This document shows positions 1 through 17,603 of a stretch of 32,000 nt of DNA, one piece after another. Within the stretch, counting starts at the first letter, position 1. Every line of letters starts with the position of its first letter. The DNA lies in the NCBI RefSeq assembly GCF_000015805.1, contig NC_009073.1, forward strand, positions 720,001 through 752,000, read 5' to 3'. Below the pieces are notes generated by a model. That model worked only from the letters and a program-made list of their open reading frames with translations, was not told the origin of the DNA and made no database searches. This stretch comes from Pyrobaculum calidifontis JCM 11548. Its GTDB lineage: Archaea; Thermoproteota; Thermoprotei; Thermoproteales; Thermoproteaceae. The position numbers were made by a program, and so were the translations under genes.

Positions 1-216
1 TCGCCGAGGGAGTTCGCTAGGCACATGGGCTACGTCAAGGTGTGGGTGAGATTCCCCGAATTCGACATGGACCAACGGCAAGGCGTCCACTGGCACCCCT
101 CAGTGGCGTATGTGACGGTGTACGCCGCGTCCAAGAGGTCCGCGGCGGCTCTTGCCGCATTGGGCGTGCCTCTCAGAGGCGCCAAGGCGGAGTTCGCCAT
201 GGAGGTAACGCCGTGA
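1..216 (+). CDS. 3' end of a hypothetical ORF entering from upstream of the window
   Basis: Frame 1 is open from nt 1 to TGA 214-216. The peptide (..GYVKVWVRFPEFDMDQRQGVHWHPSVAYVTVYAASKRSAAALAALGVPLRGAKAEFAMEVTP) is protein-like, whereas the overlapping frame-3 peptide of track ORF 42.. is Arg/Gly-rich here. The stop overlaps GTG 213-215 of the next ORF (GTGA). Confidence 0.4.
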   Translation, partial: SPREFARHMGYVKVWVRFPEFDMDQRQGVHWHPSVAYVTVYAASKRSAAALAALGVPLRGAKAEFAMEVTP

Positions 217-797
217 GTCGGGCCAATAGGCGCGCCGACCCCCTCCGCATAGCCCTTGAGAGGCTTAGGCGGGACTTCCCCGGGAAAAGCCGCTCTTGGA
301 TCAAAAGGGCTTTGTTGAGACTGCCGTATGTGCGTGAAGTAAGAGATGGCCTCTACGTCGTGGAGGGCGTGAGGGAGCTGGGGGATTGGAAGCCCCTCTA
401 CCAAGTGTGGTGGAGCGGGCGGGAGGGGCGTTGGGAGTGCACGTGTTATTATTCGACGTGGGGGTGGAGGAGGCGGAGGGGCATATGCACACACGTGGCC
501 TCTGTCCTCCTCTATCGCCGCTTCAAGAGGGCGGTGGAGGCAGTTGAGAACCGCCCCGTCTACTTCGCATCAGCTGAGGTGGAGTGTGTAAACGTGAAGG
601 TGAGGGGGTCGCTGGAGCACCGCATCACCCCCCTCGAGAAGGCTGGGTCGCTCCTCGACTTCGCCAGGGGGAGGCGGTATGTAGTTTACATAATCGCCGA
701 GGGGCCGTCTGCCGAGCTGTTGTGCGACGGGTCGCCGGTGGAGCTGGCGTGGGAGAGGCTCAGCCTAAAAGTGGCCAAGGCCCTCCTAGAGGGCTGA
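213..797 (+). CDS. SWIM-type zinc-finger protein (about 194 aa if the GTG 213 start is used)
   Basis: C-x-C-x(n)-C-x-H signature CTCYYSTWGWRRRRGICTH at nt 438-494. The frame is open to TGA 795-797. GTG 213 is preferred over track start 42 because it gives a GTGA overlap with the upstream ORF and avoids a 170-nt two-frame overlap. Confidence 0.65.
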   Translation: MSRANRRADPLRIALERLRRDFPGKSRSWIKRALLRLPYVREVRDGLYVVEGVRELGDWKPLYQVWWSGREGRWECTCYYSTWGWRRRRGICTHVASVLLYRRFKRAVEAVENRPVYFASAEVECVNVKVRGSLEHRITPLEKAGSLLDFARGRRYVVYIIAEGPSAELLCDGSPVELAWERLSLKVAKALLEG

Positions 798-830
798 GGC
801 GCCCCTAGAAGACGGTCGGCGCCTTTTCCC
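798..830 (+). terminator. Possible terminator: GC hairpin followed by a T-run
   Basis: Self-complementary GGCGCC at 798-803 and 818-823 (14-nt loop, extendable by A797:T824) is immediately followed by TTTT (824-827), just after the SWIM ORF stop. Archaeal termination depends mainly on oligo-T, so this is weak. Confidence 0.3.
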
Positions 831-1019
831 GCAGTCCTCACATAGGCTTTCTCCAGACGCCTTTCTCCCTCGACGTCTTTTCCCACGGCCCTTGCGCCGT
901 CTCTCTTCGACGTATTCTCCCGCAGTTTTTACGCCGTGTTTACGTAGCGTGTGTCCACTATTGTTCTTCTGAGGCTTTCAGGGGCGTTGGGTTTTTCCCC
1001 TTCGGCGTAGGCCACTCCC
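824..1019 (+). promoter_or_regulatory. Upstream non-coding region of the giant-gene operon with pyrimidine-rich direct repeats
   Basis: TTTTCCCGCAGT (824-835) and TTCTCCCGCAGT (915-926) match 11/12 and are 91 bp apart. TCGACGT+YTTYTCCC occurs at 870-884 and 907-921. Further YTTYTCCC-like copies lie at 862-869 and 992-1000. The T-rich box GTTTTTCC (991-998) sits 22-29 nt before ATG 1020. Confidence 0.35.
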
Positions 1020-1481
1020 ATGCCCAAACCCGCGTTTGCGGCAGTGGCGCTGGCCGCGCTTGTGCTGGCACAGCTCGCAGTGGCGCAGGCCACAACTACG
1101 CCTGCCAGCGGCGGCGGTGGCGGCGGCGTTACCAGCGTGGAGTTTTGGCAGAACATCGCCTCTGGCGTGGGGAAGTGGCTTAGGGCAATATTCGCCATCG
1201 CCTTCTGGTCTTCTCTCATCTTGTTGACCTTCTACGCCATTATGACCCAAGTGGCGCCCTCCAAGGTCTTCCGGCTGGGCGCATTGGTGGACCTCATCGA
1301 GAGCGTGAAGACTGTGTTGTTAGGCATCTTCGTCTTCACAGCCTCCGTCACCGGCATTATCGCAGGCGTGGCGGCCATAGCCAACGCCTTCGGCGCCTCC
1401 TTCGGAGTATCGCCAATCGACGTAGTAAACGCCCTCATATTCCAGCCAATAGTAGACATGGTAAAAGTGGTAACTGGGTAG
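1020..1481 (+). CDS. Secreted small membrane protein, 153 aa: signal peptide plus two long hydrophobic helices (VirB2/TrbC/TedC-type pilin-like architecture; hypothesis)
   Basis: MPKP n-region, then an 18-residue Ala/Leu/Val h-region ending AQA|TTT (A-x-A cleavage-type site, aa 22-24). Gly6 run at nt 1110-1127. Helices LRAIFAIAFWSSLILLTFYAIM and VKTVLLGIFVFTASVTGIIAGVAAIANAF are joined by the basic loop APSKVFRLG. The next ORF starts 4 nt after the stop. Confidence 0.75.
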   Translation: MPKPAFAAVALAALVLAQLAVAQATTTPASGGGGGGVTSVEFWQNIASGVGKWLRAIFAIAFWSSLILLTFYAIMTQVAPSKVFRLGALVDLIESVKTVLLGIFVFTASVTGIIAGVAAIANAFGASFGVSPIDVVNALIFQPIVDMVKVVTG

Positions 1482-1485
1482 GGCA

Positions 1486-2418
1486 ATGACGCTTACCTCA
1501 AACACGCCCCTTTTTTCCACCTCTCCTTCCCTCTCCTCGCCTACTCCCTCGCCCTCCCTAGCCCTCTTCCTCCCCTCCACAGGCATACCAGTGCTGGACG
1601 TGGGGCTGGCTGTGCTGGGGGCCATGGCCACATACGGCGCAATTCTCTGGCTCATGGGGGTTAGGCGCCTTAGGGAGGAGGCTGTGGACGCCTTTCTACA
1701 CGCCATATTCGGCGCGGCGCTGTTCGCAGTGGCCCTCGTCATTGGGAACTTGGCGGTGCAGGCCGCTTCGGCCTACTACGACTATGCCAATGTAAGCAAA
1801 TTGTGCTTCAACCTCGCCGGCCAGCCGAGCTTGCTCGACGACTATAGGCGCTGGATTAACGCCACTATGAGGTGCGCCGCGGGCAACTTCTCAAGGTACG
1901 CAGACGCCGCCGCGGCCACACTGTCTGACATGTTCACCGGCGTGGCTGTGCTCGGCTTGCTCCCCGTGGTTCAGCAGTTCGCCTTCTCCTTCATGCAGAT
2001 CCTCTTCGCCGCGGCCACAGCCGCCACTTCGCTCATGGCCGCCTCCATAGCCGCCACGGTGGCAGGCTGGCTTTTGGGAAACGTAGCCGGCATGTACCTC
2101 CTAATGCTGGCCGCCATAGCCGTAACCCACGAGAGGACGAGGGTGCTGGGGGCAATAGTGCTGGGAGTGGCAACGGCGGCGCCGGCCCTCGTGACGTTGG
2201 CAGACACGCTGGTGGCGAAGTGGCCACCCGACAGCGTCAGACTCACCGGCTGGCACCACATTGTGACGTTCTGGGACTGGGGCGCCGTCGTCGACAAGGC
2301 CAAGGCCATATACGAGGCCGCCGTGACGGCGGGCATCGGCCTGTCGGTGTTTATCGCCGTTGCGGCCGCAGTGGCGTACCTCTTCTCAAGGGTGCCCCAC
2401 GCCATTGGGGTTGAATGA
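1486..2418 (+). CDS. Polytopic integral membrane protein, 310 aa (about 6-7 TM helices; VirB6/TrbL/CedA-like in architecture only)
   Basis: Ser/Thr/Pro-rich N-terminus and multiple 20+ residue hydrophobic segments. One hydrophilic loop (aa about 95-150) carries 2 Cys and all 3 N-x-S/T sequons of the protein (NVS, NAT, NFS). The stop TGA 2416-2418 overlaps ATG 2415-2417 of the giant ORF (ATGA). Confidence 0.7.
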   Translation: MTLTSNTPLFSTSPSLSSPTPSPSLALFLPSTGIPVLDVGLAVLGAMATYGAILWLMGVRRLREEAVDAFLHAIFGAALFAVALVIGNLAVQAASAYYDYANVSKLCFNLAGQPSLLDDYRRWINATMRCAAGNFSRYADAAAATLSDMFTGVAVLGLLPVVQQFAFSFMQILFAAATAATSLMAASIAATVAGWLLGNVAGMYLLMLAAIAVTHERTRVLGAIVLGVATAAPALVTLADTLVAKWPPDSVRLTGWHHIVTFWDWGAVVDKAKAIYEAAVTAGIGLSVFIAVAAAVAYLFSRVPHAIGVE

Positions 2419-5400
2419 CCTGTGGCCCGGCGCCCCCGGCCCCGCCCGCCCCGGGGGACCTCCTATGGTGGATAGTCGCCGCCGCGGGGTTCTACTCCTT
2501 CCTGAGGGCTTGGGCTAGGCGGGAGTGGGACTGGTTTCGCCCCATCCTAGGCGCACTGATCGCCATAGTCGTAACGCCCGCCGTGATAAACTTCGTAATT
2601 GGGGGACTGTTCGGCCACCCCACCCCCCTCTACTCGGTAGAGGGCTTCACCCTCGTTCTACCCTCGCTGGAGGCCCTTGAGCGAAACGCCGCACTGACCT
2701 GCGCCGCATACGACGCACTCGCAGAAGCGGCCAAGGCTCTGGCTAACGCATACGGCTACGTCACAGCCGCCACGGCGGCCATAGGCGTTTTGATGACGGC
2801 CATATTCGTCATGGCCGTCTTCACTGGCGCGGGGGTGGCGGCCGCCGTCCCCATCCTCTGGTCGATGTACAAGGCCTACAATGTGGCCAGCGGCGTCCAC
2901 GAGGTTCTCCTGTCCTTCTTCACCATCACCTTCTCCTTCATGGCCATCGTGGGGGTGCTTAAGCACTTGGCCCAGATAGCCCTCTGGTCGCCGTGGCTGA
3001 TCACCTTCGGCGTGGCGGCGCTGTCAGTGCCTAGGCTGAGGGGGATTGGAGCCCTATTCGTGTCGCTGGCCGTCATCTCAATAGTCGTGTCGTATGTGGC
3101 TGGCGCCTATGCCGCAGACGCCTACGCAACGGCGCAGTGGGCCCAAGCCATTGCAAAATGGGCCCTCGACCTCTCAAAAGAGTGGCAGACCGAGCAGAAT
3201 CTAACGGCCGGCGGCTCACCCGCCTACGTCTACATGCAGCCCGCCCTCTGGATAGGGCATTATAACAACACCTTTTCGACGAGGGCGTTGGAGGGCCTCT
3301 ACCAAGACCTCGTCAAAGACCCAGTCCTGGGCAATAACACGAGGGCCGCCGAGGCTTGGCGTAGGGCGCTGGAGGCGTGGAAGTTCGCCTACAACACGAC
3401 CATCCTGGCCCGAAACGTAACTAACGCCCCCCTCTACGGCGGCCTCGTCGCCGCCGTTGAGTATGGGAATAAGACCTGGTTCTTCAAGAGGGGCAACGCG
3501 ACAGACGAGTTGAAGGCCCTCGTGGTGTGGCTCGACATGGACGTCCATGTCTCAAACGCCAGCCTGTGCTCCATGGGCATGCTGGCCCCCGCAGAGAAGG
3601 CTCTCCTAGACCGATTCCTCCAGCGCAGGCCTGACAAGAGGGGCGAGTTTGAGACGTTGAACGAGACGGCGCACCGCCTCTGCCGCTACCTAGAGCGGAG
3701 CGGCTTGTTGCAGACGTGGGTTCTGACGTGGGATGGGGCGTTTAGGCGGCTTGTCCAGCCCTACACCTACAACGTGACTTACCACGTTGGCTTTCAAGCG
3801 GGCTCAGCCTACGGCGTCGCCGGCGCTTGGGGCTGGGTTGTTCCGCCGGAGGGGGAGAAGTGCTACGACGCCGATGGGAAAGAGGGCGGCTGCGGCTCGC
3901 TACTGGCCTCCCTCAAGCCTGGCCTCTACAAGTACGACGCGGCGGCTGGGCAGTGGGCCGCCAAGATAGACCCGTTGCCAGGCGCCGTGAAGTCTGTGTG
4001 GAACTTCACTGTGAGGGAGGCGGCCGACTCTTTCTACGTCAGCAAGTCTGTGGACCTCTACCACTACACCGAGTACTGCCGCTGGTGCGCCCAGTGGGTC
4101 AACGGCACGTGCGTAGACTGGCGACTGTCGTGGCGGGACTGGTACGAGAGGTATAGAGTCGACTGGAACTACACCACCCGCTACTACAACGCCACCGTCG
4201 CATGGGTAGACAAGCCGTGGAGGCCCAGCCACCTCGCCCACCCCTCCTCCAAGGTGGTGCAAGTGCCTTGGACTGAAGCCATCGCCGTCGTGGTAAAGTG
4301 GCGGGAGGCCGGGCCTTGGTGGCCTGACCAGCCGGGCAACTACTGCGCAAACTGGTGGACCACTGCGCCGGACGTCTACAAGGTGGTGACGGTGTTTCAC
4401 ACGCCCCGCCAGCCGGCCGTCGGCTACGTGTACGGCTGGGCTTGGCTGTCGAGGGCAGACGTGGCGTACGCCTACAACTCCACCACCCTCATTGGACAAA
4501 TCTCCTCTAGTCCTCAGGAGGACGTGTGGATGGAAGGCGCAGTGCAGTCGGCCTACTGCGCACTGGCCATGGACCGCTACCCGTACTGGGCTGTTGACAA
4601 CGCCACGCTGAGATACGCCATTGGCAATTTGACTGCTATAAACCGCAGGGCCCTCGCCGCCGGCGTTACGTACAACAACCTCACGGCTAGGTGGTGGCAA
4701 CTGCGCCACATCGACGAGGCCTTCCAAAAGCTTGAGGCAGACGTCCAGAGGGCCATGAACTCCCCCGACCCAGAGGAGAGGAGAGACGCCCAGGTGGTGT
4801 GGAACTTGGTACAGTTCTACCGCCGAATGGCGCAGATAGACGTGGGACAGCTGGCCTTCCTCCCGCCGCCCCACGAGGAGCCGGAGGGCTACCAGCTACA
4901 CCAATACCACGTGGTGTGCATCAACTTCCACTGGAAGGCCAAGACCGCCGTAAACGGCACCACGAGGATGGAGCCCGCCGCCCTTTGGACCATCGGGGCC
5001 ACCGGCTTCCCCTTGGGCTACACAAACCTAACCGACTTCTTGATTGGGAGGCTGGCGGACTTCTACGCCCGCCTCTTTAGGAAGGGCTTTCCTCCCCCGC
5101 CCAAGAACGTCACTCTCGTGGCGTGGCTTGGGGACAGGCGCTTCGAGGTAAGGGGCTACACCCGCTTTGCCGCCGGCGGGGAGTGGTGGTGGGACGGCTC
5201 GCCGCTGCCCTACACCCCCGTCGATTATAACAAGACGGGCGCGCTTCCGGCGTCTGTGTGGGGCTTCCCCATCTACGACATATACGGCGTTGTTTTTCAA
5301 GCCCTCGTCCTAATGGCCTCGATTGCTGGTGAAGCGTGGGCTAGGATGGTGGCGGGCAGCCTATACGCTTTGGGCGCTCTTGAGGCCCTCGGCCACCTCT

Positions 5401-8400
5401 TTGGCTTTCCCACGCCGGTTCGCCTCATCTACCCACTGGTGCTAGACATTATCTCCCAGCTGGGCTACTGGCTTATGATACGCGTGGCGATTAGGGCCAA
5501 GCTCGTGGCGAGGCTTCTGAGGCCAGTGAAGGTCTACATTGATAGGGCGGGCAGGGCCGTCGCCTCTAAGATACCTCCCGCCCCAGAGTGGCTTAGGCGC
5601 GCCTTTGGCTGGTATGTGAGACACGAGCCCACGCCGCTGAGGGTGGTCAGAGTGCACATGCTCAGCGCGGTTGAGCAAGTGAAGAGGAGGTTCTGGGAGG
5701 AGCTGCGGAAAAGGCTTAGGGAGCTTGAGAGAGGGCGAATACGCGGAGAGGAGCTGGAAGAGGCGGCGCGGGAAGCCGCCAGATCGGCCGCTGAAGGTGC
5801 GAAGCAGGCGGCAAAAGAGGCCGTCAAGAGGACGTGGTACGTCCTCCAATCCCACGACGTGGTTGAGTTTGCTAGGAGGGTGTCGGGGAGGGCCGACGCC
5901 TTCTTCCGCACCATGGAGGAGAAGCTCATTGAGGCACATCCAGCCATCGCCGTTCTTCTGGCCCTCTACAGGGGGCCCTACGGGGTATTCGCCATCGTAT
6001 CCGAGGGCGCAATTAGGTGGCTTCTGCGGACTGGCCGAATCACCGCGCAGGAGGCTGAGGAGCTTAGGCGGCTTAGACACCTCTTCTGGGCCATGGCGGC
6101 AGAGTCCCGAGCCAGGGCAGTGGCGATGGAGAGGCCCAATGAAGAGGCGTTGAAGCACTACTTTGAGCATAGGGAGAAGGTGTTGCGCGTCGTCTTATCG
6201 ACGGTTGAGCAGATCAAGGAGGCTAAATCAAAAGAGGAAATAGAGAGAGCTTTGTACAGCGCCGCAGAGCACCTGGCCAGAATCGACCTAAAGGCCGTCG
6301 AGCGTGTGAGAGAGGCCTTTGAGCTGGCGGCCTTCGGCAGGAGGGTCGGCATCGGCACCACGGCCAAGCTGGCCGAAGCGCTGTGGGAAAAGCGCGTTGG
6401 GATTGAGGCCGTGGTGGAGAGGGCCAAGGAGCTACTGCGGATGCACTACGAGAGTGCTCCTCTCTCCTACGAGGAGTTGAGACATGCGGCACTAATGCGG
6501 CAGATCGTGTTAGTCAAGCCGCTCTACGCCGCCCTCGCAGAGGCTAGGCTGTACGCCGCAGAGGGCGGGGTTGAGCAGGCTAAGAGGGCATATGAGGCGT
6601 TGAAAGCCGTAAAGCCCTTTGAGCGCTTCGGCGAAGTGCAGTTGAGGGAGCTTAGGTCGATGGCGAAGAGGGCCCTCTCCCTCGAAAGGAAGTTGACAGA
6701 GGTGGAGAGGGAGATCGCAAGGGTGAGGGAGCTTTTACCGACGGCGGATGGGCAGAGGGCCGCCCTTGAGGCCCAGCTCGCAAAGCTTGAGGCCCAGAGG
6801 GCCCACATCGCCGAGAGACTAAGGGAGCTGAGGGCCCGCATACGCGTAGAGGCTGGTGAAGCAATTGAGCGCATTGCCAGAACATACCGCGGCTTCTTGG
6901 AGGACGTTAGGCGTGAAGTAGATCCAGCGTTTAGGCGGCTTAGAGACGCCCTCGTGGCGGCTGAGGTTAGGCCTAGGCTAGTCGAGGAGCTCACAAACGC
7001 CGTCAAGCGGCACGAGGAGGTGATAAGGGGGGAGGCGGCGAGGTGGAGCGAGGCAGTGCAGAGGCTAGAGAGGGCCCTCTCCACGGAGATTACTGAAGAA
7101 GACATAAGGCTGGCCAAATCGCTAGGCCTCCACCGCCTGGCAGAATACCTTGAGTACGTGAGAGAGGTTAGGGCGGCTGATGCCGCGGCTTCTCAGCCGC
7201 TGGCCGACGTCAAGGTCAAGCTGGAGAGGGCTGAGGAGGTGGTTAGAAAGCTGGCGGAGGGGAAGGCGGATAGAGCACTGGCAGAGGCGGCTGAGGCCCT
7301 TGGCCTCAAGCGAGTTAAGGCATATGCAGAGGAGCAGATCAAGTGGAGGGCGGGGGAGCCCCTCACGACGTCGTTGCTGGACGCCCTAGAGGAGGCCAGG
7401 CGCTACGCAGACGCCCTTGCCAAGGCTGGGAGGGCGTTGTCGCAGTGGCGCTCCCTTGACGTGGCCGAGCTGAGAGAGGCGGCAAAGGCCGCTAGGGAGG
7501 TGGGCCTTGAGCAGGCGGCCAAGGCCATTGAGCGCTTTGTGGAACTCAAGCAGAGGCAGGTGTCAGACACTGCGCTGGGCGAGCTTTCCAAGGCAAAGGC
7601 CGTGGCAGAGGGCTTGAAGGCGTTGTTGGAGGGCCGCCTCCTTGAGCGGCTGGCCGAGGTAAAGGCCGCCGCTGAGGCCCTAGGCCTAAAGGACGTTGAA
7701 AAAGCCGTTGTAAGGCTTTCGGCCGTCTCGCACGTCGAAAGCCTGGAAGAGGCGTACCGCGCGCTTAAGGCTCAGTTCGAAAGAGAGGGGAGAGACACGT
7801 CGCGCCTCGACGAGGCTTATCAGAGGCTGAAGAAAGTGTCGGAGGACCTGGCCAAGGCGAAGGAGGACGTCAAGGCCGCCGTTAAGAAGTACAAAGAGGT
7901 AATCAGGCGTGAGGCGGTTAGGTGGGGCGAGGGCGTCCATCAGTTGAAGGCCCTCTTCGAGTCTCAGATGTCTGCCGAAGACGCCCTAAAGGGCGTTGAA
8001 GTTGCAAAGGCGCTGGGCCTCAGGCGCGTTGAGAGGTTCTTGGAGGAGTATGTAAAATACATACCGAAGAGGGAGGAGTACTCAGTTGCGGCGACGGCGG
8101 TTAAGGCGGCTAGAGAGAAGGCCCTCTCCGTTGAACCGTTCGCCAGGAGGGAGCTGGAGGAGGCCGTGGCAAAGGCCTCCTCGGCGGAGAAATTGTTGAC
8201 GTCACTGTGCGAGTTGTACAACGTCGGTGCCGAAGAGGCGAAGCGTCTCTCCGAGTTGGCAAAGGGCGTTGGGCTTGGGGGGGCGGCGCAGTTCTTCGCC
8301 GAGTGGGGCAAGGTGGCTAAGGAGGCGTCTGAGAGGAGGGAGTTTGAGGCTCTCTCGAGGCTGGCTAAAGGCTTGGCGAAGGGCCGTCTGGCTGAGGAGG

Positions 8401-11400: not shown

Positions 11401-14400
11401 TTGAGGCGTTGAGAGGAGAGCTGTCGGCCATCACCCCGGCCGACCTAGTGGCCGACGTGGTGAACAAGAGGGGCGAGGTAATCGCCCGCCTCAAGAAGGC
11501 GCTGGAGGAGGCGAGGGCAGAGGTTGTGAGGGCAGTCTTCGACTCGATTAGGACTGCTGGTGTCAGACGCATTCCGCGTGAGCTGTTGGAGCTGGCGGCC
11601 TCTACCCACTTTACGCCGGAGGAGTTGAGGATGTTGTTGACAGAGCTAGACGCTGTTAGGGCTGTGGAGGAGAGGGCCGTCGGGTGGCCCTCCTTCGCCG
11701 AATACACGCCGTACATCTTCGCCACGACGGACGAGGCAGTGGCGAGGGCTTGGCGCAAGGGCGGTGGGCTGGTGTACGAGGCATATGAGCTCACAGAGGC
11801 CGGCCCGCGCCGCGTCTACGTCCTAGCGCCCAAGAATGCGCCAATAGACGAAATTAGGGAGGCGTTTCTGTCGCTTAGAGGGGTTGAGATTGTGGGCGAG
11901 CCCCGCTGGATTTCCTGGGACGCCGTTGAAGCCCTTGGCTATGTCGTCGAGCGCACAGAGAAGGGCGTCGTCGTTAGGCCACGCGCCGAATATCAACTAA
12001 GTTTGGAGAAGCCTCTCCCGAGGGCTAGGGAGGCTTGGGAGGTGGTGAAGCGGTTTAGGCCGGACGTGGTGAGAGAGGCACTTGGCCACGGCTGGGAGCT
12101 GGTGCACTGGGAGGATGGCGTAGAGGCCGTCAACGCATATTTGTTCTTGCGCAAGCTTAGGGGCTGGGAGAAGTTCGAGGGCGGGGACGTGGAGCGGATG
12201 TTCGACGAGCTTCGGCGTTGGTATACGCCGGGGCTTGAGCGCCATGCCGCCGTCATTTCGCGTAGGATGTATGGCTTTGACGCCGTTGACTGGCTGAAGG
12301 GGGCCTACGCGGTGTGGGCGAGGAGCCGCGGCGAATTTGTCGCCAAGTACGTGCACAGAGACCCGGAGGCCCTCGCCCGCGTCGTCTGGTGGGCGAAGAA
12401 GTGGGCGTGGGGTAGGCTGTACGACCTGCTTGAGCTAGAGTTCAGAGACCCCACTGTCCTTAGGGCGGTGAACATCGCCGTCAAGCGCGGCTTTCTGTCG
12501 TGGGGAGAGGCGCTCGACCTCTTCCACGAGTGGGTTAGGAGGAACAACATAGCGAAGTGGGATGAGGAGGCGCTGAGGATTGCCCTCCGCGGAAACATAA
12601 CGTCGGAGGACTACGAGAGGGCCGTTCGGGCCTTCATCACCTCGGTGAAGACGGCGCAACAGCTGGAGGCCGAGCGGGAGGCGCTGGAGCGGTGGAAATT
12701 GCTACAGGAGAGGATGAGAGAAGAGGCGGAGAAGGCGAGGGCAAGGCGAGCCACCAGACTCAGGCCGGAGGCGGCTCCTAAAGAAGAAGCTAGGCCAAGG
12801 GAGGAAGTTGAGCAGAGAGAGGCCGCAGTGAAGCCGGGTGAAGAGGCGAAGGAGGCGGCTCCGAGGGAGGAGGCCAAGCCGGCGGTTGAGAAAGCTGAGG
12901 AGAAGGAGAAGCCCTCCGCCGTGGAGAAGCCGCCTACGGCCGAGGCGGCCCGCGGAGTGGAGGAGAGGAGGGCTGTCGAGGAGAAGAAGGAAGCTGAAGA
13001 GAGGAGAGAGGAGGAGTTTGTCCGCGTTGGGAAAGTCATGGTGAAGAAGGGCTATGAAGACGACGCCGTGGTGAAGGCCTTCGCCGCTGAGGACCCGCAG
13101 AACTGGTTTACAAAGCTGACGCCGGAGACCTACTTCAGGCTGAGAGAGACACTGGCGCCGGCCTACCTGCACTACCTGGAGAGGGCTAGGGAGTGGGCCG
13201 CCTCACGGGAGAGGGCCCTCTCAATACTCGCAAGCAGGCACGGCCGCATTGACATACCGAAGAGAGTCAAGGATAGGGCTGTGGAGAAGGCGAGGGCAGA
13301 GCTTGAGAAACACGCCGCCAGGCTTGTCTACCGCTACGGCGAGGAGAAGGCCCAGGCGGCCCTCGTGAAAATCGGCATCCTCCTTGAGGAGTGGGTGAGA
13401 GAGGGCGAGTTGCCAAACGCCCATGCGGAGATTTTGAGGGCTATGTGGGCTTGGGAGGGGGAGGAGAAGACGGCCAATGTGACAAGAGAGTGGGGCTTTT
13501 GGCTCTTCCGCGAGCACTTCGCAGAGCTGAAGAAAACGGCGGAGGCCCTCGGCGTTGATGTAATGCACCTCTGGAACGCCTACCGTGCCGCGCTTGAGCG
13601 GTACTTGGCCGCTGTGTTTGCCTACGGCGGCCTTGTGGAAAAGGCAGTCACGACGGTGGACAAGGCCCTCTACACGACGCTGGTCGCCGCCGGCGGCGTC
13701 GCATTGGCTGAGGCGTTGCAAGGCGTCGTTAGGCCTGAGATCGTCTACACGGTGTCGTCTGCCGCCTCCCTCGCCTTAGCGGGTAGGTACAGGGAGGCCG
13801 TTGACGTCATCAAGACAGCGGTGCACAACGTCGAGCTGGCGGTGAGGCGCGTCGCGGGCGAGGTTAGAGTCGCCGTTGAGCGCCTCTATGAGGCCATAGT
13901 CGAAGCCGTCGCCAGATTGCTACAGTGGCTTGGCGAGCACTGGCGCGTACTGGCGTTTGTCACAGCCGCGGTGGCGGCCGGCTTGTTGACGTGGATGGCG
14001 GCTCAGCAGATACTGGCCGACGTCGACATGGCGCAGTTTGCCAAACTGGCCGCCGGCGGATTCTTCGGCTTGGCCGGCGTTAAAAAGGTCGACGTTGACA
14101 AAGCCTTAGACGACGTGTTGAGCGGGCTTAGGGCAATGGAGGGCCTTGAGAGGGGCGGGCTCGCCGGCCACGTCTCTAGGGGCTACGCGTCGGCCGACTT
14201 TGCCCGCCTTGTTGAAGAGGCTGTTAAGGCCAGGCTGAGGGCTGAGGCGGAGGCGGCCGAGGCCGGGCGCTTGATAAGGGCCAAGCTTGCGGGCGGGGCG
14301 GCGCCGCGGGGCGACTTCGATCGCTTTGCCTTAAACGCCGCGGCGGTTGCAGACACGGCGCTTGGCCTCGTTTACGAGGCCCTGAGGCAGAAGTGGAGGG

Positions 14401-17400
14401 CCGTGGCTAGACCCGGCATTGTGGAGAACTACGCCCATGTGGACAAGAAGTTTGCCGAAGTGTTCAACGTGCGCGAGAGGGACGTGGTGCACTTCCTGCG
14501 CTATGATGTAGGAGATATAGCATATGGAGACGCCAAGACAGAGGGAGCTGTCGTGTTGGTTTTCCTGGGTGGTGAAAAGATCATAAGGGTGGAGGTGTTG
14601 GCCAAGTCCGTCGCCGGCCTCCCAATACGCTTTAAGGAAGTGGAGTGGGGTGGAGGGAGGTGGGTTTGGTTGGCCACTGCTATGATTAACAAGCCCAAGA
14701 ACTATGTGGCGCGCATCGAGCTCAGATTTACTGAGAAGCCGGAGGTCGAGGTGAGGGGCGGCGCCGCAGGCGTTGAGGGGCTTAGGGGCCTACTGGCGAC
14801 GGACGCCTATGGGAAAGAGATAGGAACCCCAGACCCGCTTCTCGTCAAGCTTTTCATCGACCACTTCGAGAAAGCGAAAGTCGAGGTGGCTGGGGTGACG
14901 CTAACTAAGGCCGGCTTCTCGCTTCAGTTCAGAGCTGTCACACTGGACGAAAAGCCGTTTGAAGAGCTATTCGGCGACATAGCCAAGAAGTATGGGAAGG
15001 ACTTGTGGGAAATCATGAAGAAGACCAGAGAAATGTGGCGGGAGGCTGTGCGCAAGTTGTACAAAGACATCATGCGCGTGGCCAATGAGGCGGCCGAGGT
15101 GGGCAAGGTGAAGGGCGTTGAGGCGGGGAGGGAGGCCCTCGTCGAGGGTCTAAAGCGCTTGTTTGAGGAGAGGGAGCGGGAGGCGCTAAGCGCCGGCCGC
15201 CTCGACGATGCCCTCGCGATTGCAGTGGCGGGCCGCCTTCTGTTGGGCATTGTGAACAGCCCAAGGGAATGGTTCTCGCTGTTGGCCGGCGATGGCGTAG
15301 TGGACATTGGCGGCAAAACGCTGGGCTTCTCAGCCAAATACGCCGAGGTTGCCGAGGTCGTTCTCCGCCTGTTGGCCGCGTGGGCTGGCGCATATGGAGC
15401 GGGAATAAGGGCGAAGGAGCGTATGGCCGTGTATTCCAGCGCCGACGACATAGTCAAAGTCCTTGGGGCCATCTTCAAGGGCGAGGTGTTGAAATACGCG
15501 GAGTCCTCGGCAAGGTCGTGGAGTGGGCTTGCCGGCTCACATACACCTAAGGTCATCTCGCTTCTGGCCCTCGCCCAGCTCCTCGGCGTAGTCGAGGGGA
15601 AGTGGGCCGTGGAGCTGTGGCTCGCCCACAAGGCCGCAACGACGCTTGCGGAGCCGGAGGTGGCCCAAGCGCTCGACAAGTTCTTTGCCAGAGTTGAGGG
15701 CGTCGGCGAAGTGAAGTGGGAAGAGAGGGGCGTCAACCTCTACTTCAAGGTGAGGGGTTTAGAGGATGTCGAGCGCACAGCTACGCTGAAGTTGTACACA
15801 GACTTCCATAACTTCCACCTCTCCTGCGACTCGTGTAACGAGGTCTCGGTGAGGAGGGTTCTTGAGACTGTGGCCGAGTGGCTGAGGCCTGCGGTGGAGC
15901 TGTTGGAGGAGCGGCTGAGGCTGGCCGCCGAAAAGCAAAAGTGGCCGAGGTGGCATTGGAACTCTCTCGACCTCCCGGCAGAGGTGGGCTGGCCCATGTT
16001 TTTAAAACTGTGGAGGGTGTATAATATGTCTCTCCGCGTGGAGGAGGGCGGGCGGGAGCTACTCCGCGTGGAGGTTCTGGAGGCTAGGGCGGATGGGACG
16101 GCGAAGTTCCGCCTTTGGTTCTACAAGTGGCGCGAGACTAGGCCAGACCAGCCGTACGTGGACGTCGAAATAGAGCCATATCAGCGCAAAGGCGACAGTA
16201 TCGCCTTTAGAGGTAGCGTCTATGCCAACAAGGCTAAGGGTATTCTCAGAGACCACTTGGCCGAGATTGCCGATCTGCTGAAGCGCGAGGGGGTGGAGGG
16301 CGTGTCGCTGGTGCGTGACGGCAAAGTGCTTGAATTCTCAAGCGCTTTCCGCGACTCCGTCCTCGGAAGGCTTAGCATTAGGCCGGAGCTCCCGCCGGGC
16401 GAGCCGCCAGCTGTGCAGTACTTGGGCGGCCTTAGGTTTAGAGTGGGCGATAAAGAGGTGGAGTTCGGCGAGAGGGTCTTTGGCAAGACGAGAGAGTTCT
16501 ACGCAGAGCCGATGTTTCTGTCTAGAGAGGAGGCCGAACGCTTCGCATCGTCGCTTAAGGCCGTGGGAGTAGACGCAAGGATAGTCGGCAACGTGGTTAG
16601 GCTAGACAGCGACTCCTTCTTCGGTCTGCTCGCCGTTACAAATGCCACGCCGCCAGGCCTTACGCCGCTGTACCGCTCCAATGATCTACAGGTATACGCC
16701 AGCGCCGAGGGCGGCCGTATGCGCTTCTACTTCGCCGTAAAGCACGAGGGAGTGTGGAGGGCCGTCGAGGGGCTGTACGAGGAGAGAGCTCTCGAGCTCT
16801 GGCGCAAAGAGCGCGAAGTCCTTGAAGCCGTCAGAGACGCTGTGGCGAGAGCGCTTAAGGAGCTGGGCCACCCGGCGGAGGTGGGAGAGCCGAAGGAGAG
16901 AGTGGACGAAAAAGGTAGCGCTGTAGGCCACCGCCTCCTCCTATACGGCCCCCACCTCAAGCCGTTTCTGGAGCACGCCGTTAGGCACGTAGAGGCAAAG
17001 CCTGTCGAGGTGCGGCTGGAGGGGAGACACATCGTTATCAGTGCAGGCAATGTTAAGGCAGAGGTTGAGTTCAAACTGTTGAAGCACAGGGAGGCCGAAT
17101 TCCTCGTGGCTCAAGACGTGGTACAGACTCTCGCCCTTTACAAGTCGCTCAAGGAGATGGGCGTGCCCGTGGAGATTACGCCAGAGGGCGTCAAGATTGA
17201 CAGCGAGACGCTGTGGGCCCTCGTGGCAATAGCAGTTGAGAGGGATACGCCCAGCGCGTTGCCCGCCGAGGTTATGCCTGGCGTAAAGCTCTTGAAAGTA
17301 TATAATGTCGGCAACATGCATATGTACATATTCTGCGCCGAAGGCGACCACTACTACTTCGTCGTAAAGACTGGGCAGGAGTGGAGAGCGGCAGGCGGAA

Positions 17401-17591
17401 AGAAAAGCGGCAGACATGTGATGATCGCTGGCAAAGCCGCCGTGGTCATCGTAGAAGCCATAAACGCCCTATACCGCGAAAAGGGAGTAGAGAGAAGGGT
17501 TGAGGTGAAGCACGACAAGCACAATGACAGACACTACATCTATCTCACTAACGTAGACTTGAGGCTGTTAGGCGTGGAGCCGACGTTATAG
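2415..17591 (+). CDS. Giant multi-domain membrane protein, 5,058 aa. Order of domains: N-terminal polytopic domain; sequon-rich ectodomain; TM cluster; about 2,400-aa Ala/Glu/Arg/Leu-rich helical repeat region; Glu/Lys/Pro/Ala linker; late hydrophobic segment; C-terminal beta-rich repeat modules
   Basis: Single open frame of 15,177 nt. At this GC content a random frame should hit a stop every few tens of codons. The ATG start is coupled by ATGA to the upstream ORF. Domain-specific amino-acid composition and internal protein-level duplications show it is a genuine coding sequence. I recognised no enzymatic signature. Confidence 0.9.
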   Translation: MTCGPAPPAPPAPGDLLWWIVAAAGFYSFLRAWARREWDWFRPILGALIAIVVTPAVINFVIGGLFGHPTPLYSVEGFTLVLPSLEALERNAALTCAAYDALAEAAKALANAYGYVTAATAAIGVLMTAIFVMAVFTGAGVAAAVPILWSMYKAYNVASGVHEVLLSFFTITFSFMAIVGVLKHLAQIALWSPWLITFGVAALSVPRLRGIGALFVSLAVISIVVSYVAGAYAADAYATAQWAQAIAKWALDLSKEWQTEQNLTAGGSPAYVYMQPALWIGHYNNTFSTRALEGLYQDLVKDPVLGNNTRAAEAWRRALEAWKFAYNTTILARNVTNAPLYGGLVAAVEYGNKTWFFKRGNATDELKALVVWLDMDVHVSNASLCSMGMLAPAEKALLDRFLQRRPDKRGEFETLNETAHRLCRYLERSGLLQTWVLTWDGAFRRLVQPYTYNVTYHVGFQAGSAYGVAGAWGWVVPPEGEKCYDADGKEGGCGSLLASLKPGLYKYDAAAGQWAAKIDPLPGAVKSVWNFTVREAADSFYVSKSVDLYHYTEYCRWCAQWVNGTCVDWRLSWRDWYERYRVDWNYTTRYYNATVAWVDKPWRPSHLAHPSSKVVQVPWTEAIAVVVKWREAGPWWPDQPGNYCANWWTTAPDVYKVVTVFHTPRQPAVGYVYGWAWLSRADVAYAYNSTTLIGQISSSPQEDVWMEGAVQSAYCALAMDRYPYWAVDNATLRYAIGNLTAINRRALAAGVTYNNLTARWWQLRHIDEAFQKLEADVQRAMNSPDPEERRDAQVVWNLVQFYRRMAQIDVGQLAFLPPPHEEPEGYQLHQYHVVCINFHWKAKTAVNGTTRMEPAALWTIGATGFPLGYTNLTDFLIGRLADFYARLFRKGFPPPPKNVTLVAWLGDRRFEVRGYTRFAAGGEWWWDGSPLPYTPVDYNKTGALPASVWGFPIYDIYGVVFQALVLMASIAGEAWARMVAGSLYALGALEALGHLFGFPTPVRLIYPLVLDIISQLGYWLMIRVAIRAKLVARLLRPVKVYIDRAGRAVASKIPPAPEWLRRAFGWYVRHEPTPLRVVRVHMLSAVEQVKRRFWEELRKRLRELERGRIRGEELEEAAREAARSAAEGAKQAAKEAVKRTWYVLQSHDVVEFARRVSGRADAFFRTMEEKLIEAHPAIAVLLALYRGPYGVFAIVSEGAIRWLLRTGRITAQEAEELRRLRHLFWAMAAESRARAVAMERPNEEALKHYFEHREKVLRVVLSTVEQIKEAKSKEEIERALYSAAEHLARIDLKAVERVREAFELAAFGRRVGIGTTAKLAEALWEKRVGIEAVVERAKELLRMHYESAPLSYEELRHAALMRQIVLVKPLYAALAEARLYAAEGGVEQAKRAYEALKAVKPFERFGEVQLRELRSMAKRALSLERKLTEVEREIARVRELLPTADGQRAALEAQLAKLEAQRAHIAERLRELRARIRVEAGEAIERIARTYRGFLEDVRREVDPAFRRLRDALVAAEVRPRLVEELTNAVKRHEEVIRGEAARWSEAVQRLERALSTEITEEDIRLAKSLGLHRLAEYLEYVREVRAADAAASQPLADVKVKLERAEEVVRKLAEGKADRALAEAAEALGLKRVKAYAEEQIKWRAGEPLTTSLLDALEEARRYADALAKAGRALSQWRSLDVAELREAAKAAREVGLEQAAKAIERFVELKQRQVSDTALGELSKAKAVAEGLKALLEGRLLERLAEVKAAAEALGLKDVEKAVVRLSAVSHVESLEEAYRALKAQFEREGRDTSRLDEAYQRLKKVSEDLAKAKEDVKAAVKKYKEVIRREAVRWGEGVHQLKALFESQMSAEDALKGVEVAKALGLRRVERFLEEYVKYIPKREEYSVAATAVKAAREKALSVEPFARRELEEAVAKASSAEKLLTSLCELYNVGAEEAKRLSELAKGVGLGGAAQFFAEWGKVAKEASERREFEALSRLAKGLAKGRLAEEVALAAGEGLEVGRWLRAVEGVKPLYERAVEEASRLKTTAELAKRLSESVERWRYLDAGELRAAAQMAREGGFTKTAEFLEKAADFKAVVETAREVFERHEKVLKRLRALEQSARHELSKAVTIAEGLRALLEGDFYDRLSEARRAARALGLSEVDEALARLGRVKLSIERVGDEYAYDVGGAVRRVMADFGVDRLLLRAPLSAYVVATIEASIAREAASVFRQAFARYEREVATTAVYLPVREAQKLGPVVSPITAAFDFRSYVDELVKAGDLRRYYSSGGRAWRELAHLVAKASGAVLDLRAARKALEKGDDASIALAIALAYRAAKTYMRLEGDIRPLADVVAEVRYRLGLYDRTWAEFIEKVEGEKAKAKILEALRPRTVEEAVEQLKAAWAKSNYHALEERLGLTRTYAIPDADRALEYTAKALTAYRLAAMGFEEALSVARAQSFIRTAERYLRGRPLETPAREQPLYVARALARPLPEVKPSAIDEVAREAVIRLLREVEAGGAKAKALWRQVEELVKVSPDAFAEVVAYASSARGLAAHWARQLVAKMRREWDTYRTLWEAPVAIRLERLRDIPAAKVEAPVPRELVALALWAELAAKARPTAAKDIEAIKRVVGEVSPAALEEARLRAERVRAVLDDIEKLKAVDVERPVYIAFSSLEREVPGEDVKALTIDERAELLKAQRYLKHSDPRVAREGELLAKFAAGELTRSQLADELRKLGGPYTQEGCGAIEMPNRLKDIHAVLTAKLANEVAILRDVEELRHVAVGTAFHTAVRAGLGDEDAWRELRALAALDKAAERAVRYAELLRILRALSEGLERVVYETELAKRWPEYRHVLLEREYVLKRAEELRREGPERAIVAGLLEQFAEGRITRSELIEAARQKGVDLHEFSRNGVERVRGDVIRAVREAAAEFKQFAGAPRSLRDLLEGKLPRGLYAKMAEEIGVADVVYAELGVPARYAKYGLLEGIERYVKELKKLVLQLPGDASRALVAIEALRGELSAITPADLVADVVNKRGEVIARLKKALEEARAEVVRAVFDSIRTAGVRRIPRELLELAASTHFTPEELRMLLTELDAVRAVEERAVGWPSFAEYTPYIFATTDEAVARAWRKGGGLVYEAYELTEAGPRRVYVLAPKNAPIDEIREAFLSLRGVEIVGEPRWISWDAVEALGYVVERTEKGVVVRPRAEYQLSLEKPLPRAREAWEVVKRFRPDVVREALGHGWELVHWEDGVEAVNAYLFLRKLRGWEKFEGGDVERMFDELRRWYTPGLERHAAVISRRMYGFDAVDWLKGAYAVWARSRGEFVAKYVHRDPEALARVVWWAKKWAWGRLYDLLELEFRDPTVLRAVNIAVKRGFLSWGEALDLFHEWVRRNNIAKWDEEALRIALRGNITSEDYERAVRAFITSVKTAQQLEAEREALERWKLLQERMREEAEKARARRATRLRPEAAPKEEARPREEVEQREAAVKPGEEAKEAAPREEAKPAVEKAEEKEKPSAVEKPPTAEAARGVEERRAVEEKKEAEERREEEFVRVGKVMVKKGYEDDAVVKAFAAEDPQNWFTKLTPETYFRLRETLAPAYLHYLERAREWAASRERALSILASRHGRIDIPKRVKDRAVEKARAELEKHAARLVYRYGEEKAQAALVKIGILLEEWVREGELPNAHAEILRAMWAWEGEEKTANVTREWGFWLFREHFAELKKTAEALGVDVMHLWNAYRAALERYLAAVFAYGGLVEKAVTTVDKALYTTLVAAGGVALAEALQGVVRPEIVYTVSSAASLALAGRYREAVDVIKTAVHNVELAVRRVAGEVRVAVERLYEAIVEAVARLLQWLGEHWRVLAFVTAAVAAGLLTWMAAQQILADVDMAQFAKLAAGGFFGLAGVKKVDVDKALDDVLSGLRAMEGLERGGLAGHVSRGYASADFARLVEEAVKARLRAEAEAAEAGRLIRAKLAGGAAPRGDFDRFALNAAAVADTALGLVYEALRQKWRAVARPGIVENYAHVDKKFAEVFNVRERDVVHFLRYDVGDIAYGDAKTEGAVVLVFLGGEKIIRVEVLAKSVAGLPIRFKEVEWGGGRWVWLATAMINKPKNYVARIELRFTEKPEVEVRGGAAGVEGLRGLLATDAYGKEIGTPDPLLVKLFIDHFEKAKVEVAGVTLTKAGFSLQFRAVTLDEKPFEELFGDIAKKYGKDLWEIMKKTREMWREAVRKLYKDIMRVANEAAEVGKVKGVEAGREALVEGLKRLFEEREREALSAGRLDDALAIAVAGRLLLGIVNSPREWFSLLAGDGVVDIGGKTLGFSAKYAEVAEVVLRLLAAWAGAYGAGIRAKERMAVYSSADDIVKVLGAIFKGEVLKYAESSARSWSGLAGSHTPKVISLLALAQLLGVVEGKWAVELWLAHKAATTLAEPEVAQALDKFFARVEGVGEVKWEERGVNLYFKVRGLEDVERTATLKLYTDFHNFHLSCDSCNEVSVRRVLETVAEWLRPAVELLEERLRLAAEKQKWPRWHWNSLDLPAEVGWPMFLKLWRVYNMSLRVEEGGRELLRVEVLEARADGTAKFRLWFYKWRETRPDQPYVDVEIEPYQRKGDSIAFRGSVYANKAKGILRDHLAEIADLLKREGVEGVSLVRDGKVLEFSSAFRDSVLGRLSIRPELPPGEPPAVQYLGGLRFRVGDKEVEFGERVFGKTREFYAEPMFLSREEAERFASSLKAVGVDARIVGNVVRLDSDSFFGLLAVTNATPPGLTPLYRSNDLQVYASAEGGRMRFYFAVKHEGVWRAVEGLYEERALELWRKEREVLEAVRDAVARALKELGHPAEVGEPKERVDEKGSAVGHRLLLYGPHLKPFLEHAVRHVEAKPVEVRLEGRHIVISAGNVKAEVEFKLLKHREAEFLVAQDVVQTLALYKSLKEMGVPVEITPEGVKIDSETLWALVAIAVERDTPSALPAEVMPGVKLLKVYNVGNMHMYIFCAEGDHYYFVVKTGQEWRAAGGKKSGRHVMIAGKAAVVIVEAINALYREKGVERRVEVKHDKHNDRHYIYLTNVDLRLLGVEPTL
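3198..5237 (+). other. Predicted extracellular, N-glycosylated Trp/Tyr/Cys-rich domain of the giant protein (aa 262-941)
   Basis: By direct count there are 22 N-x-S/T sequons in about 680 aa, against 4 in the remaining about 4,380 aa. There are 10 Cys. Trp clusters include DWRLSWRDWYERYRVDWNY, GPWWPDQPGNYCANWW and GGEWWWDG. The domain is flanked by hydrophobic TM clusters (nt 2460-3130 and 5270-5500). Confidence 0.6.
7002..8895 (+). repeat. Diverged tandem duplication inside the giant ORF (two units of about 245 and 335 aa, each with four 'xxLGLxxV/A' helical sub-repeats)
   Basis: Unit 1 starts VKRHEEVIRGEAARWSEAVQRL (nt 7002). Unit 2 starts VKKYKEVIRREAVRWGEGVHQL (nt 7881). Later segments also pair: WRSLDVAELREAAKAAREVGLEQ with WRYLDAGELRAAAQMAREGGFTK, and AEGLKALLEG..AAEALGLKDVEKAVVRL with AEGLRALLEG..AARALGLSEVDEALARL. 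LGL-type motifs lie near nt 7122, 7299, 7503, 7683, 8013, 8272, 8600 and 8845. Confidence 0.75.
10441..11075 (+). repeat. Second internal duplication in the giant ORF (about 47-aa conserved core, about 160-aa period)
   Basis: ERAELLKAQRYLKHSDPRVAREGELLAKFAAGELTRSQLADELRKLG (10441-10580) aligns with EREYVLKRAEELRREGPERAIVAGLLEQFAEGRITRSELIEAARQKG (10931-11075). By eye roughly 40% of positions are identical, including LL..FA.G..TRS.L. Confidence 0.55.
12655..13017 (+). repeat. Low-complexity Glu/Lys/Ala/Pro/Arg linker of the giant protein (aa about 3414-3535)
   Basis: Purine-rich GAR/AAR/GCN codon run encoding EAEKARARRATRLRPEAAPKEEARPREEVEQREAAVKPGEEAKEAAPREEAKPAVEKAEEKEKPSAVEKPP..EEKKEAEERREEEF. 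It also generates long spurious antisense ORFs (12611-13039, 12702-13172). Confidence 0.7.
15732..17369 (+). repeat. Four diverged copies of a beta-strand module in the C-terminal region of the giant protein
   Basis: VNLYFKVRG (15732-15755); AKFRLWFYKWRE (16101-16136); LQVYASAEGGRMRFYFAVKHEGVWRAVEG (about 16686-16770); LKVYNVGNMHMYIFCAEGDHYYFVVKTGQEWRAAGG (about 17290-17395). The last two copies align clearly (L.VY....G...[FY]YF.VK....WRA..G). Confidence 0.5.
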
Positions 17592-17603
17592 CCCTTTATA
17601 TTG

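Follow-up and report, generated by a model that had tools for sequence, protein, structure and literature searches.

A unit of three co-directional genes lies near the start of the stretch of the Pyrobaculum calidifontis JCM 11548 chromosome analysed here (NC_009073.1, positions 720,001 to 752,000; 32,000 nucleotides (nt), referred to as a whole as the window). The first two genes are tedC and tedA of the type Ted (Thermoproteales exchange of DNA) locus, a chromosomal, conjugation-derived DNA-transfer system similar to the type IV secretion systems (T4SS) of bacteria; the unit lies at the distal end of this locus. The third, which overlaps tedA and encodes a protein of 5,058 amino acids (aa), is what is new here: probably an undescribed third component, called the giant in the following. 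To our knowledge, Ced and Ted are the sole archaeal machines known to exchange chromosomal DNA, and they represent a key case of domesticated conjugation; for several parts of the bacterial T4SS, namely VirB7-10 and VirB5, we know of no archaeal counterpart.

The tedC-tedA-giant unit

The unit consists of the following open reading frames (ORFs):

1020..1481, + strand: tedC (Pcal_0765), VirB2-type conjugative pilin with signal peptide, 153 aa (8DFT_A match; WP_011849449.1)
1486..2418, + strand: tedA (Pcal_0766), polytopic CedA/VirB6-like membrane protein, 310 aa (WP_011849450.1)
2415..17591, + strand: giant, 5,058 aa (WP_011849451.1/ABO08193.1)

The first two genes are separated by 4 nt (1482-1485), and the stop codon of tedA overlaps the start codon of the giant gene in an ATGA (2415-2418). 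The coordinates, common direction, spacer, overlap and convergent downstream neighbour given by an initial annotation, made from the sequence alone, all hold, and hydropathy agrees with its statement that the three products are membrane proteins.

Residues 38-149 of the first product are identical at 111 of 112 positions to chain A ('Pilin protein') of PDB entry 8DFT (E=7.5e-64), and exact-sequence look-up returned WP_011849449.1 for gene 1 and WP_011849450.1 for gene 2, both from P. calidifontis JCM 11548. The pilus of this organism has been solved by cryo-electron microscopy and its pilin, Pcal_0765 (WP_011849449), has been named TedC; the pilus is lipid-bound, and the relationship between TedC and VirB2 is a structural one, drawn from the solved pilus (Beltran et al. 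2023, PMC9905601). Pcal_0766, a protein with seven transmembrane (TM) segments encoded downstream of the pilin, was named TedA in the same work, where it was related to CedA (HHpred, 98.6%) and, distantly, to VirB6. Since the 8DFT_A match, the exact accessions and the locus names of that paper all point to the same proteins, genes 1 and 2 are the published TedC and TedA. Thus, the suggestion of a Ted-like module with an ATPase encoded elsewhere was right and even understated, this being the type Ted locus itself, while a 'strongly divergent' or 'unrelated' system is no longer tenable; as for the 'undescribed apparatus' proposed initially, the term does not apply to genes 1 and 2, which are published. 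The giant, rightly noted at the outset as unusual and as no ATPase, is undescribed and conserved together with tedC and tedA.

TedA shows about seven hydrophobic segments by hydropathy and is 28% identical to its Thermoproteus counterpart (E=2e-19), with orthologues in both a Pyrobaculum metagenome-assembled genome (MAG; locus L001) and Thermoproteus CP80 (L002). HMMER gave no VirB6 match for gene 2 in either Pfam or, with a TedA profile, the PDB; the VirB6 link of TedA is therefore that of the published HHpred result (PMC9905601), which was not reproduced at HMMER level. TedC matched no Pfam family, T4SS_pilin (PF18895) included, and one TedA out of ten gave a faint T4SS_pilin match (E=0.035) in its N-terminal hairpin. 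As a separate observation, the tedA frame of L001 (8700-10001) has an extra in-frame N-terminal pilin domain of TedC type, with its own signal peptide and 40% identity to the TedC of the window over 112 aa (E=7e-16); this second pilin is either fused to TedA or read through into it, and it fits the published idea that pilins and the N-termini of VirB6/CedA are related.

The giant itself was found by exact-sequence look-up to be annotated as a 'chromosome segregation ATPase-like protein'. Pcal_0767 is not mentioned in any searchable paper, and the follow-up papers on Ted and Ced describe no giant gene. Scans of all three products against Pfam, NCBIfam, PHROGs and PADLOC assigned the giant to no family and revealed no defence or viral link.

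Distribution of the giant and its linkage to tedA

When the N-terminal 1,050 aa of the giant served as query, a word-indexed search found a single protein; the same region (aa 1-1050), compared exhaustively by HMMER with 1.84 billion representatives, gave more, although only 13 clusters. These come from Pyrobaculum (calidifontis, aerophilum, ferrireducens and sp.), Thermoproteus sp. and Thermoproteaceae, together with a few doubtfully labelled MAG bins, and the giant is restricted to Pyrobaculum/Thermoproteus-type archaea. The complete homologues measure 3,990-4,633 aa. All giants share the N-terminal 1,050-1,800 aa or so, about 25% identical to the distant clade, and a second block nearer the C-terminus (block 2) with 36-41% identity, a hidden Markov model (HMM) of which matches 10 out of 10 complete giants (E<=5e-41).

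One genome scan and one metagenome scan yielded 77 loci, in which tedC and tedA were called with HMMs based on sequences of the window, L001 and L002. The order tedC-tedA-giant is found in 38 of 61 loci (class I, the window counted), L001 and L002 among them. Across these 38 loci the distance from the tedA stop to the giant start takes only three values, +1 nt in 22 of them, -1 nt in 9 and -4 nt in 7, and the junctions from tedC to tedA mostly lie between -1 and +11 nt. The tight tedA/giant junction is kept between giants that are only about 25% identical, such as those of the window and Thermoproteus CP80, and this points to co-translation and a common function. The recurrence of the trio in 38 independent loci shows that the arrangement seen initially in one genome is not due to chance.

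Architecture of the giant protein

On the basis of hydropathy, composition, conservation and structure prediction with AlphaFold2, the giant can be divided as follows:

2415..3164, + strand: aa 1-250, N-terminal TM bundle, candidate TedA paralogue (hydropathy, motif, HMM)
3165..5264, + strand: aa 251-950, predicted extracellular, N-glycosylated, Cys/Trp-rich ectodomain (sequons, conserved columns, AlphaFold2)
5265..5504, + strand: aa 951-1030, hydrophobic segment or segments, predicted to bring the chain back to the cytoplasm (hydropathy peak 953-974)
5505..13640, + strand: aa 1031-3742, predicted cytoplasmic region, charged and internally repetitive, made up of short helices (charge, repeats)
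13641..14084, + strand: aa 3743-3890, block 2, the second block conserved among giants, membrane-associated (hydrophobic stretch at 3844-3864) and forming the junction to the variable tail
14085..17591, + strand: aa 3891-5058 and stop codon, tail type A, predicted globular alpha/beta module (AlphaFold2, repeats, homologues)

The TM segments of the bundle are placed by hydropathy at aa 40-68, 114-151, 161-186 and 205-236, and further hydrophobic segments lie at about 953-1020. Between them, the ectodomain contains 22 N-x-S/T sequons, compared with 3.2+/-1.6 in shuffled sequences (about 7-fold), while the helical region (2 vs 1.0) and the tail (2 vs 1.4) are at chance level. The same enrichment, again confined to the ectodomain, is repeated in three other divergent giants, and it supports the initial view that parts of these products face outwards. 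Columns of Cys and Trp in this region are also conserved among giants. The AlphaFold2 model shows a beta-rich core at aa 470-720 with a predicted local distance difference test score (pLDDT) of about 90, the whole N-terminal model having a pLDDT of 62; Foldseek found no significant fold match for it in the PDB. The stretch that follows (aa 951-1030) carries a conserved FGFPxP...YWLxIR motif, which was used as a search pattern in metagenomes.

The helical region is rich in charged residues (31-40%), and between aa 1567 and 2156 it includes eight A[KR]xLGL modules. No run free of Pro and Gly is longer than 66 aa, and heptad-like windows make up only 3.8% of the total, so that there is no long coiled coil. 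No match to the region was found among PDB sequences. Homologues differ in its length by over 1,000 aa, and insertions are visible in pairwise maps. As regards the tail, AlphaFold2 predicts alpha/beta domains with a pLDDT of 83 and a predicted template modelling score of 0.67, and an internal duplication relates aa 4713-4786 to aa 4911-4995. Foldseek searches with both models against the PDB, and with the tail model against BFVD, returned nothing below E=0.02; among the non-significant matches of the tail, LAGLIDADG endonucleases and sliding clamps are recurrent. Because the tail lacks sequon enrichment, it is probably cytoplasmic, and block 2 would then be a hairpin or an anchor rather than a single membrane pass.

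Variable tails and their free-standing relatives

Tail A has many free-standing homologues of about 1,200-1,240 aa, with 45-70% identity. Two such paralogues, 5.5 kb apart, are found on a 93-kb contig (L003), at 10001-13630 (1,209 aa) and 15511-19017 (1,168 aa), in a housekeeping context. The N-termini of the free-standing proteins preserve a degenerate remnant of the end of block 2, which is no longer hydrophobic. In hot-spring metagenomes, at least 20 further clusters of free-standing tail-A proteins of about 1,210 aa were also observed.

Among the giants, tail A is common to the window and to a Thermoproteus MAG giant (P0091) whose head is only 30% identical; the idea that tail A had been fused to the giant in the P. 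calidifontis lineage alone was therefore dropped. A Pyrobaculum MAG giant (P0074), 40-48% identical in head and body, has an unrelated tail, and the homology breaks at about aa 3887, just after block 2. Tail A is also missing from L002 and from the P. aerophilum giant (P0085), and at least three unrelated tail types follow block 2 among giants. In other giants the tail matches the PaRep2b family (PF07775) above its cut-off of 20.4 bits:

L002 (Thermoproteus CP80), 18752-21892: 44.8 bits, E=8e-12
L059, 11670-14570: 50.6 bits, E=1e-13
P0085 (P. aerophilum), aa 4358-4603: 299.6 bits, E=5e-89

The window's own tail gave no match to the Pfam PaRep2b family. In the tail of L059 a near-threshold match to LAGLIDADG_3 lies next to PaRep2b, which suggests a possible LAGLIDADG-like fold for PaRep2b. 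The link between the giant and PaREP2-type families is an unexpected one. PaREP2b is a multi-copy Pyrobaculum family described as putative transposons (PMC3558965), and no paper was found that ties it to a DNA-transfer machine. The giant thus consists of a conserved body and junction followed by exchangeable tails that match multi-copy free-standing families, a pattern which may have arisen by cassette exchange, by fusion of selfish elements or by plain paralogy.

Upstream ATPases and surroundings of the unit

The following features flank the unit in the window:

1..216, + strand: Ted-associated AAA ATPase, 3' end, last 72 codons (tblastn with the L001 AAA ATPase)
42..797, + strand: SWIM zinc-finger protein (65% identical to L001 7568-8140, E=4e-90)
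798..1019, no strand: non-coding region upstream of tedC, candidate promoter/operator
17604..19010, - strand: GH77 4-alpha-glucanotransferase (Pfam Glyco_hydro_77, E=3.4e-148), convergent, downstream boundary, outside the unit

The first 216 nt of the window are 78% identical, by tblastn, to residues 226-297 of a 296-aa AAA ATPase of L001 (E=1.6e-37), itself a match to Pfam AAA_22/AAA_16. An ATPase upstream, as the initial annotation expected, is therefore present, as the C-terminus of an AAA ATPase at nt 1-216, and related loci have a VirB4/HerA-like ATPase further upstream. The true start of the SWIM protein is probably inside the listed ORF, since homology to its relatives begins at about nt 231; the Pfam SWIM match of the L001 protein is weak and below the cut-off (E=0.0017, 18.3 bits vs 19.6). 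The co-directional genes upstream of tedC in related loci encode, among others, two ATPases (one of 669 aa and the AAA ATPase), the SWIM protein, a RadA paralogue and a protein of 174 aa. Among the 15 class I loci whose flank reaches 5 kb or more, the AAA-SWIM pair was found in 7, the 669-aa ATPase (HerA/FtsK/TraG-P-loop type, also in L002) in 6 and the RadA paralogue in 12 (e.g. L001 5222-6163; Pfam Rad51, 1e-39).

These neighbours agree with the published description, in which the VirB4-like ATPase TedB of P. calidifontis is placed 'transcriptionally upstream', a few genes apart (PMC9905601), a position outside the window. One passage of that paper speaks of a 'rad50 recombinase' in Pyrobaculum Ted loci that coats 3' tails and mediates strand invasion. 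Coating of single-stranded DNA and strand invasion are RadA-type activities, so the gene meant in that passage is probably the RadA paralogue found upstream, and its name in the literature may need correcting.

The non-coding region at 798-1019 (222 nt, between the end of the upstream ORF at 797 and tedC) contains three direct repeats of about 20 nt, at 816-835, 870-889 and 907-926, with the core TCGxCG..TT.TCCC. In alignment with a relative (L004), the proximal 110 nt or so before the tedC ATG are near-invariant, and identity reaches 100% over the final 60 nt, compared with only about 82% identity between the encoded proteins; this makes the region a candidate promoter/operator of the Ted operon.

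On the other side, 12 nt separate the stop codon of the giant from the GH77 gene, beyond which housekeeping genes follow (CoaBC, spermidine synthase, S9 peptidase, galK/galT and ribosomal protein L30). Two short ORFs lie among them, at 19010-19441 (- strand), which matched no Pfam or NCBIfam family, and at 24039-24380 (+ strand). Rfam and tRNA scans of the window gave no match. Plasmid blastn with tedC-tedA was also negative, so that the locus corresponds to no known plasmid module.

Interpretation of the giant

The identity of genes 1 and 2, the architecture of the giant family, its tight coupling to tedA and its restricted distribution are established here. As to function, the giant is probably an extended VirB6-like, TedA-like component of Ted and would represent a missing structural part of the system. 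The similarity of its N-terminal bundle to TedA lies in a TM-(E)RTRxLG-TM motif, which reads 'THERTRVLGA' in TedA and 'SRTRALGG' in giants. The topology is the same in both, that is, a TM segment, a cytoplasmic (E)RTRxLG(A/G) and a TM segment leading outside; next comes a short outside loop and the last TM segment in TedA, and the 700-aa ectodomain as outside loop with a returning TM segment in the giant. Comparison of the giant N-terminus with TedA by hhalign gave E=1.4e-3 (probability 18%, 81 columns), and with larger alignments E=3.4e-4 (probability 38%, 33 columns). Moreover, an HMM of eight diverse giant N-termini matched TedA as the sole other family among 3,972 ORFs; it recognised 6 of 37 real TedA sequences at E<=1e-3 and 10 of 37 at E<=1e-2, with none of 37 reversed and none of 925 shuffled TedA sequences matched even at E<=10. 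The bundle is thus a probable TedA paralogue, judging by these comparisons, and by virtue of this the giant may be regarded as the archaeal counterpart of the bacterial 'extended VirB6-like' proteins.

If so, the N-terminal bundle would associate with TedA at the foot of the TedC pilus. A similar arrangement has been proposed for CedA with CedE, the latter being a second VirB6-like paralogue that is essential for DNA import by Ced (PMC11868833). The glycosylated ectodomain of about 700 aa would occupy the space under or through the S-layer, as a stalk, a pilus-base collar or a cell-contact surface. The helical region of about 2,700 aa, tied to the membrane at both ends (by the TM segments at about 950-1030 and by block 2), would provide an extensive cytoplasmic scaffold below the channel, to which the ATPases encoded upstream (VirB4/HerA-like and AAA), the RadA paralogue and DNA could dock. 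Finally, the function added by the variable tail would be specific to the lineage and might lie in DNA binding or in the choice of partner. A broader proposal, which we regard as speculative and rather unlikely as a whole, is that the Ted core includes a TedA-derived giant of 4-5 kaa reaching from the cell surface to a megadalton-scale cytoplasmic scaffold, with an exchangeable tail of about 1 kaa drawn from PaREP2b-type multi-copy families.

Several results weigh against an extended TedA-like component. The hhalign probabilities are just 18-38% over 33-81 columns and no reciprocal match was obtained; a second, richer HMM of giant N-termini, dominated by one clade, matched no TedA; the Foldseek comparison of the low-confidence N-terminal model (pLDDT 62) with VirB6 of R388 (TrwI) was non-significant (E~1); and neither the giant against Pfam TrbL/VirB6 nor ten TedA sequences against Pfam TrbL gave a match. 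Vulcanisaeta and Caldivirga have Ted (PMC9905601), and yet no named giant homologue from either genus appeared in the search. Furthermore, in 23 loci for which 1.5 kb or more of the sequence upstream is available (class II), giant homologues 55-80% identical occur without tedC, tedA or any Ted-type neighbour, which means that adjacency of tedA and the giant is not obligatory. The Ted-type upstream genes (VirB4/HerA-like ATPase, AAA ATPase, SWIM protein and RadA paralogue) occur in class I loci only (0 of 11 class II loci), and tblastn for decayed tedC or tedA in class II loci yielded nothing beyond a short conserved segment that immediately precedes the giant gene. These loci, where the neighbours are unrelated (e.g. 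STAND/AAA NTPases of 1,382-1,438 aa), together with the interspersion of class I and class II giants in identity clustering, favour an independent envelope or cytoskeleton-anchoring protein of Thermoproteaceae that merely lies downstream of tedA in some lineages and has no role in DNA transfer. That explanation is nevertheless an unlikely one: a chance adjacency would hardly persist as a junction of -4 to +1 nt in 38 of 38 class I loci, among giants down to 25% identity, and it leaves the motif-level similarity between giant and TedA aside. In addition, Ted components can be split across distant loci (PMC9905601), and for this reason class II giants may act in trans with Ted genes elsewhere or be second copies.

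The extended TedA-like component also has to be set against explanations that start from the tail, the database name or the gene model. The giant could be a polymorphic, cassette-carrying protein with a logic like that of CdiA/Rhs, whose tails might set mating or exclusion specificity, or else a protein with selfish elements fused at its 3' end. Block 2 is the best-conserved segment and directly precedes unrelated tail types; tails and bodies are incongruent, P0074 being closer in body but with another tail and P0091 more distant but with tail A; the free-standing tail-A genes start with the block-2 remnant; the Thermoproteus and P. aerophilum tails carry PaRep2b, called putative transposons (PMC3558965); and weak LAGLIDADG-like signals occur in tails. 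However, the tails are far larger than known toxin tips and, lacking sequon enrichment, probably cytoplasmic, no immunity-like gene was seen (the convergent GH77 gene is 12 nt away, with no small downstream gene), no toxin or defence profile matched the products scanned, the free-standing copies of L003 stand in a housekeeping context and not beside a giant, and plain paralogy or differential loss could yield the same pattern, so that this explanation is more doubtful still. An SMC/Rad50-type chromosome-segregation or recombination ATPase would agree with the public annotation, with a faint NCBIfam match to an archaea-specific SMC-related protein (E=0.001, 17.8 bits vs a cut-off of 300) and with the mention of 'rad50' genes in the Ted paper passage, although this last fits the RadA paralogue. 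It is refuted at the level of sequence and can practically be set aside: as the initial annotation had noted, there is no convincing P-loop, the lone GERVFGKT (aa 4685) being missing from all homologous giants; there is no Walker B or LSGG-type signature motif, no long unbroken coiled coil, and neither hinge nor zinc hook, the CxxC motifs being found only in the ectodomain (555) and tail (4471); no SMC/Rad50 match was found in Pfam or the PDB; and the protein is polytopic with a predicted glycosylated ectodomain. Hardly more credible is an annotation artefact or decaying pseudogene. Some metagenomic homologues are split into ORFs of 1,100-1,800 aa, and GC-rich sequence yields many spurious antisense ORFs, but unbroken ORFs of 3,990-5,058 aa occur in at least ten independent genomes or contigs, GC skew is consistent along the gene, and sequons confined to the ectodomain together with the conserved Cys/Trp columns point to selection on the protein.

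Three further observations on class II loci may be recorded. A large STAND/AAA-type NTPase (894-1,438 aa) often lies upstream of the giant (L033 5252-9400, L030 421-4737, L007 5091-7775), and these loci also conserve roughly 100 nt immediately ahead of the giant gene. Small upstream ORFs, considered as divergent TedA remnants, were rejected, as they resemble translated non-coding DNA.

The giant is a concrete candidate for parts of the machine that are still missing, namely pilus anchoring, envelope crossing and DNA handover to the ATPases, since it is conserved, coupled to tedA, predicted to reach both sides of the membrane and probably derived from the channel protein. Ted has been called 'the most simplified T4SS' in the follow-up literature; if the broader proposal made above were true, it would not be a minimal three-part T4SS, and PaREP2b-type repeat genes would be a reservoir of spare tails that diversify the partner or DNA specificity of chromosomal exchange. 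As a Ted component, the giant would also supply a first functional context for such repeat genes and correct a misleading 'chromosome segregation ATPase' annotation. The organism is suited to tests, its pilus having already been purified and solved.

Comparison with known systems

In the ATPases and the RadA paralogue encoded upstream, the locus agrees with Ted as described in print (PMC9905601), but descriptions of Ted and Ced published so far do not include a 5,058-aa gene overlapping tedA. CedE, in particular, is a small protein with five TM segments and, unlike the giant, has no ectodomain or cytoplasmic extension. With SMC/Rad50 proteins the giant has in common only the database name and the many charged helices; it is a membrane protein, with no ABC-type head motifs, hinge, zinc hook or long coiled coil.

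CdiA and Rhs proteins combine a large conserved body and a conserved junction with strain-variable, unrelated C-terminal modules, of which free-standing copies with a junction remnant exist. The giant resembles them in architecture only, with its body, the block-2 junction, at least three tail types and orphan copies that keep a block-2 remnant; it lacks secretion and toxin domains as well as an immunity gene, and its tails are about 1 kaa long and probably cytoplasmic. As for PaREP2b, the window's tail also belongs to a multi-copy free-standing family and the tails of other giants contain PaRep2b, whereas the window's tail itself does not match it, and PaREP2b is regarded as repetitive or transposon-like.

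The closest parallel is offered by the extended VirB6-like proteins. The VirB6-4 proteins of Anaplasma reach 4,322 and 9,935 aa (A. phagocytophilum) and belong to tandem virB6 operons, where they are co-transcribed with shorter paralogues, and the extensions of the TraG proteins of F and SXT are involved in mating-pair formation and entry exclusion (PMC7648143). Like the VirB6-3/-4 proteins of Anaplasma and Ehrlichia and TraG, the giant has a repeat-containing, hydrophilic extension of about 4,000 aa beyond its membrane domain, and it stands in tandem with a shorter VirB6-type gene, tedA, with a 4-nt overlap, although this is not so in the 23 class II loci. It differs from them in the weakly supported homology of its bundle to VirB6/TedA, in the 700-aa ectodomain inside the membrane domain, the second membrane block and the swappable tail, and in an extension that is apparently cytoplasmic, theirs being surface-exposed. 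With the giant as a probable member, the 'extended VirB6' theme would reach from obligate intracellular bacteria to the archaea.

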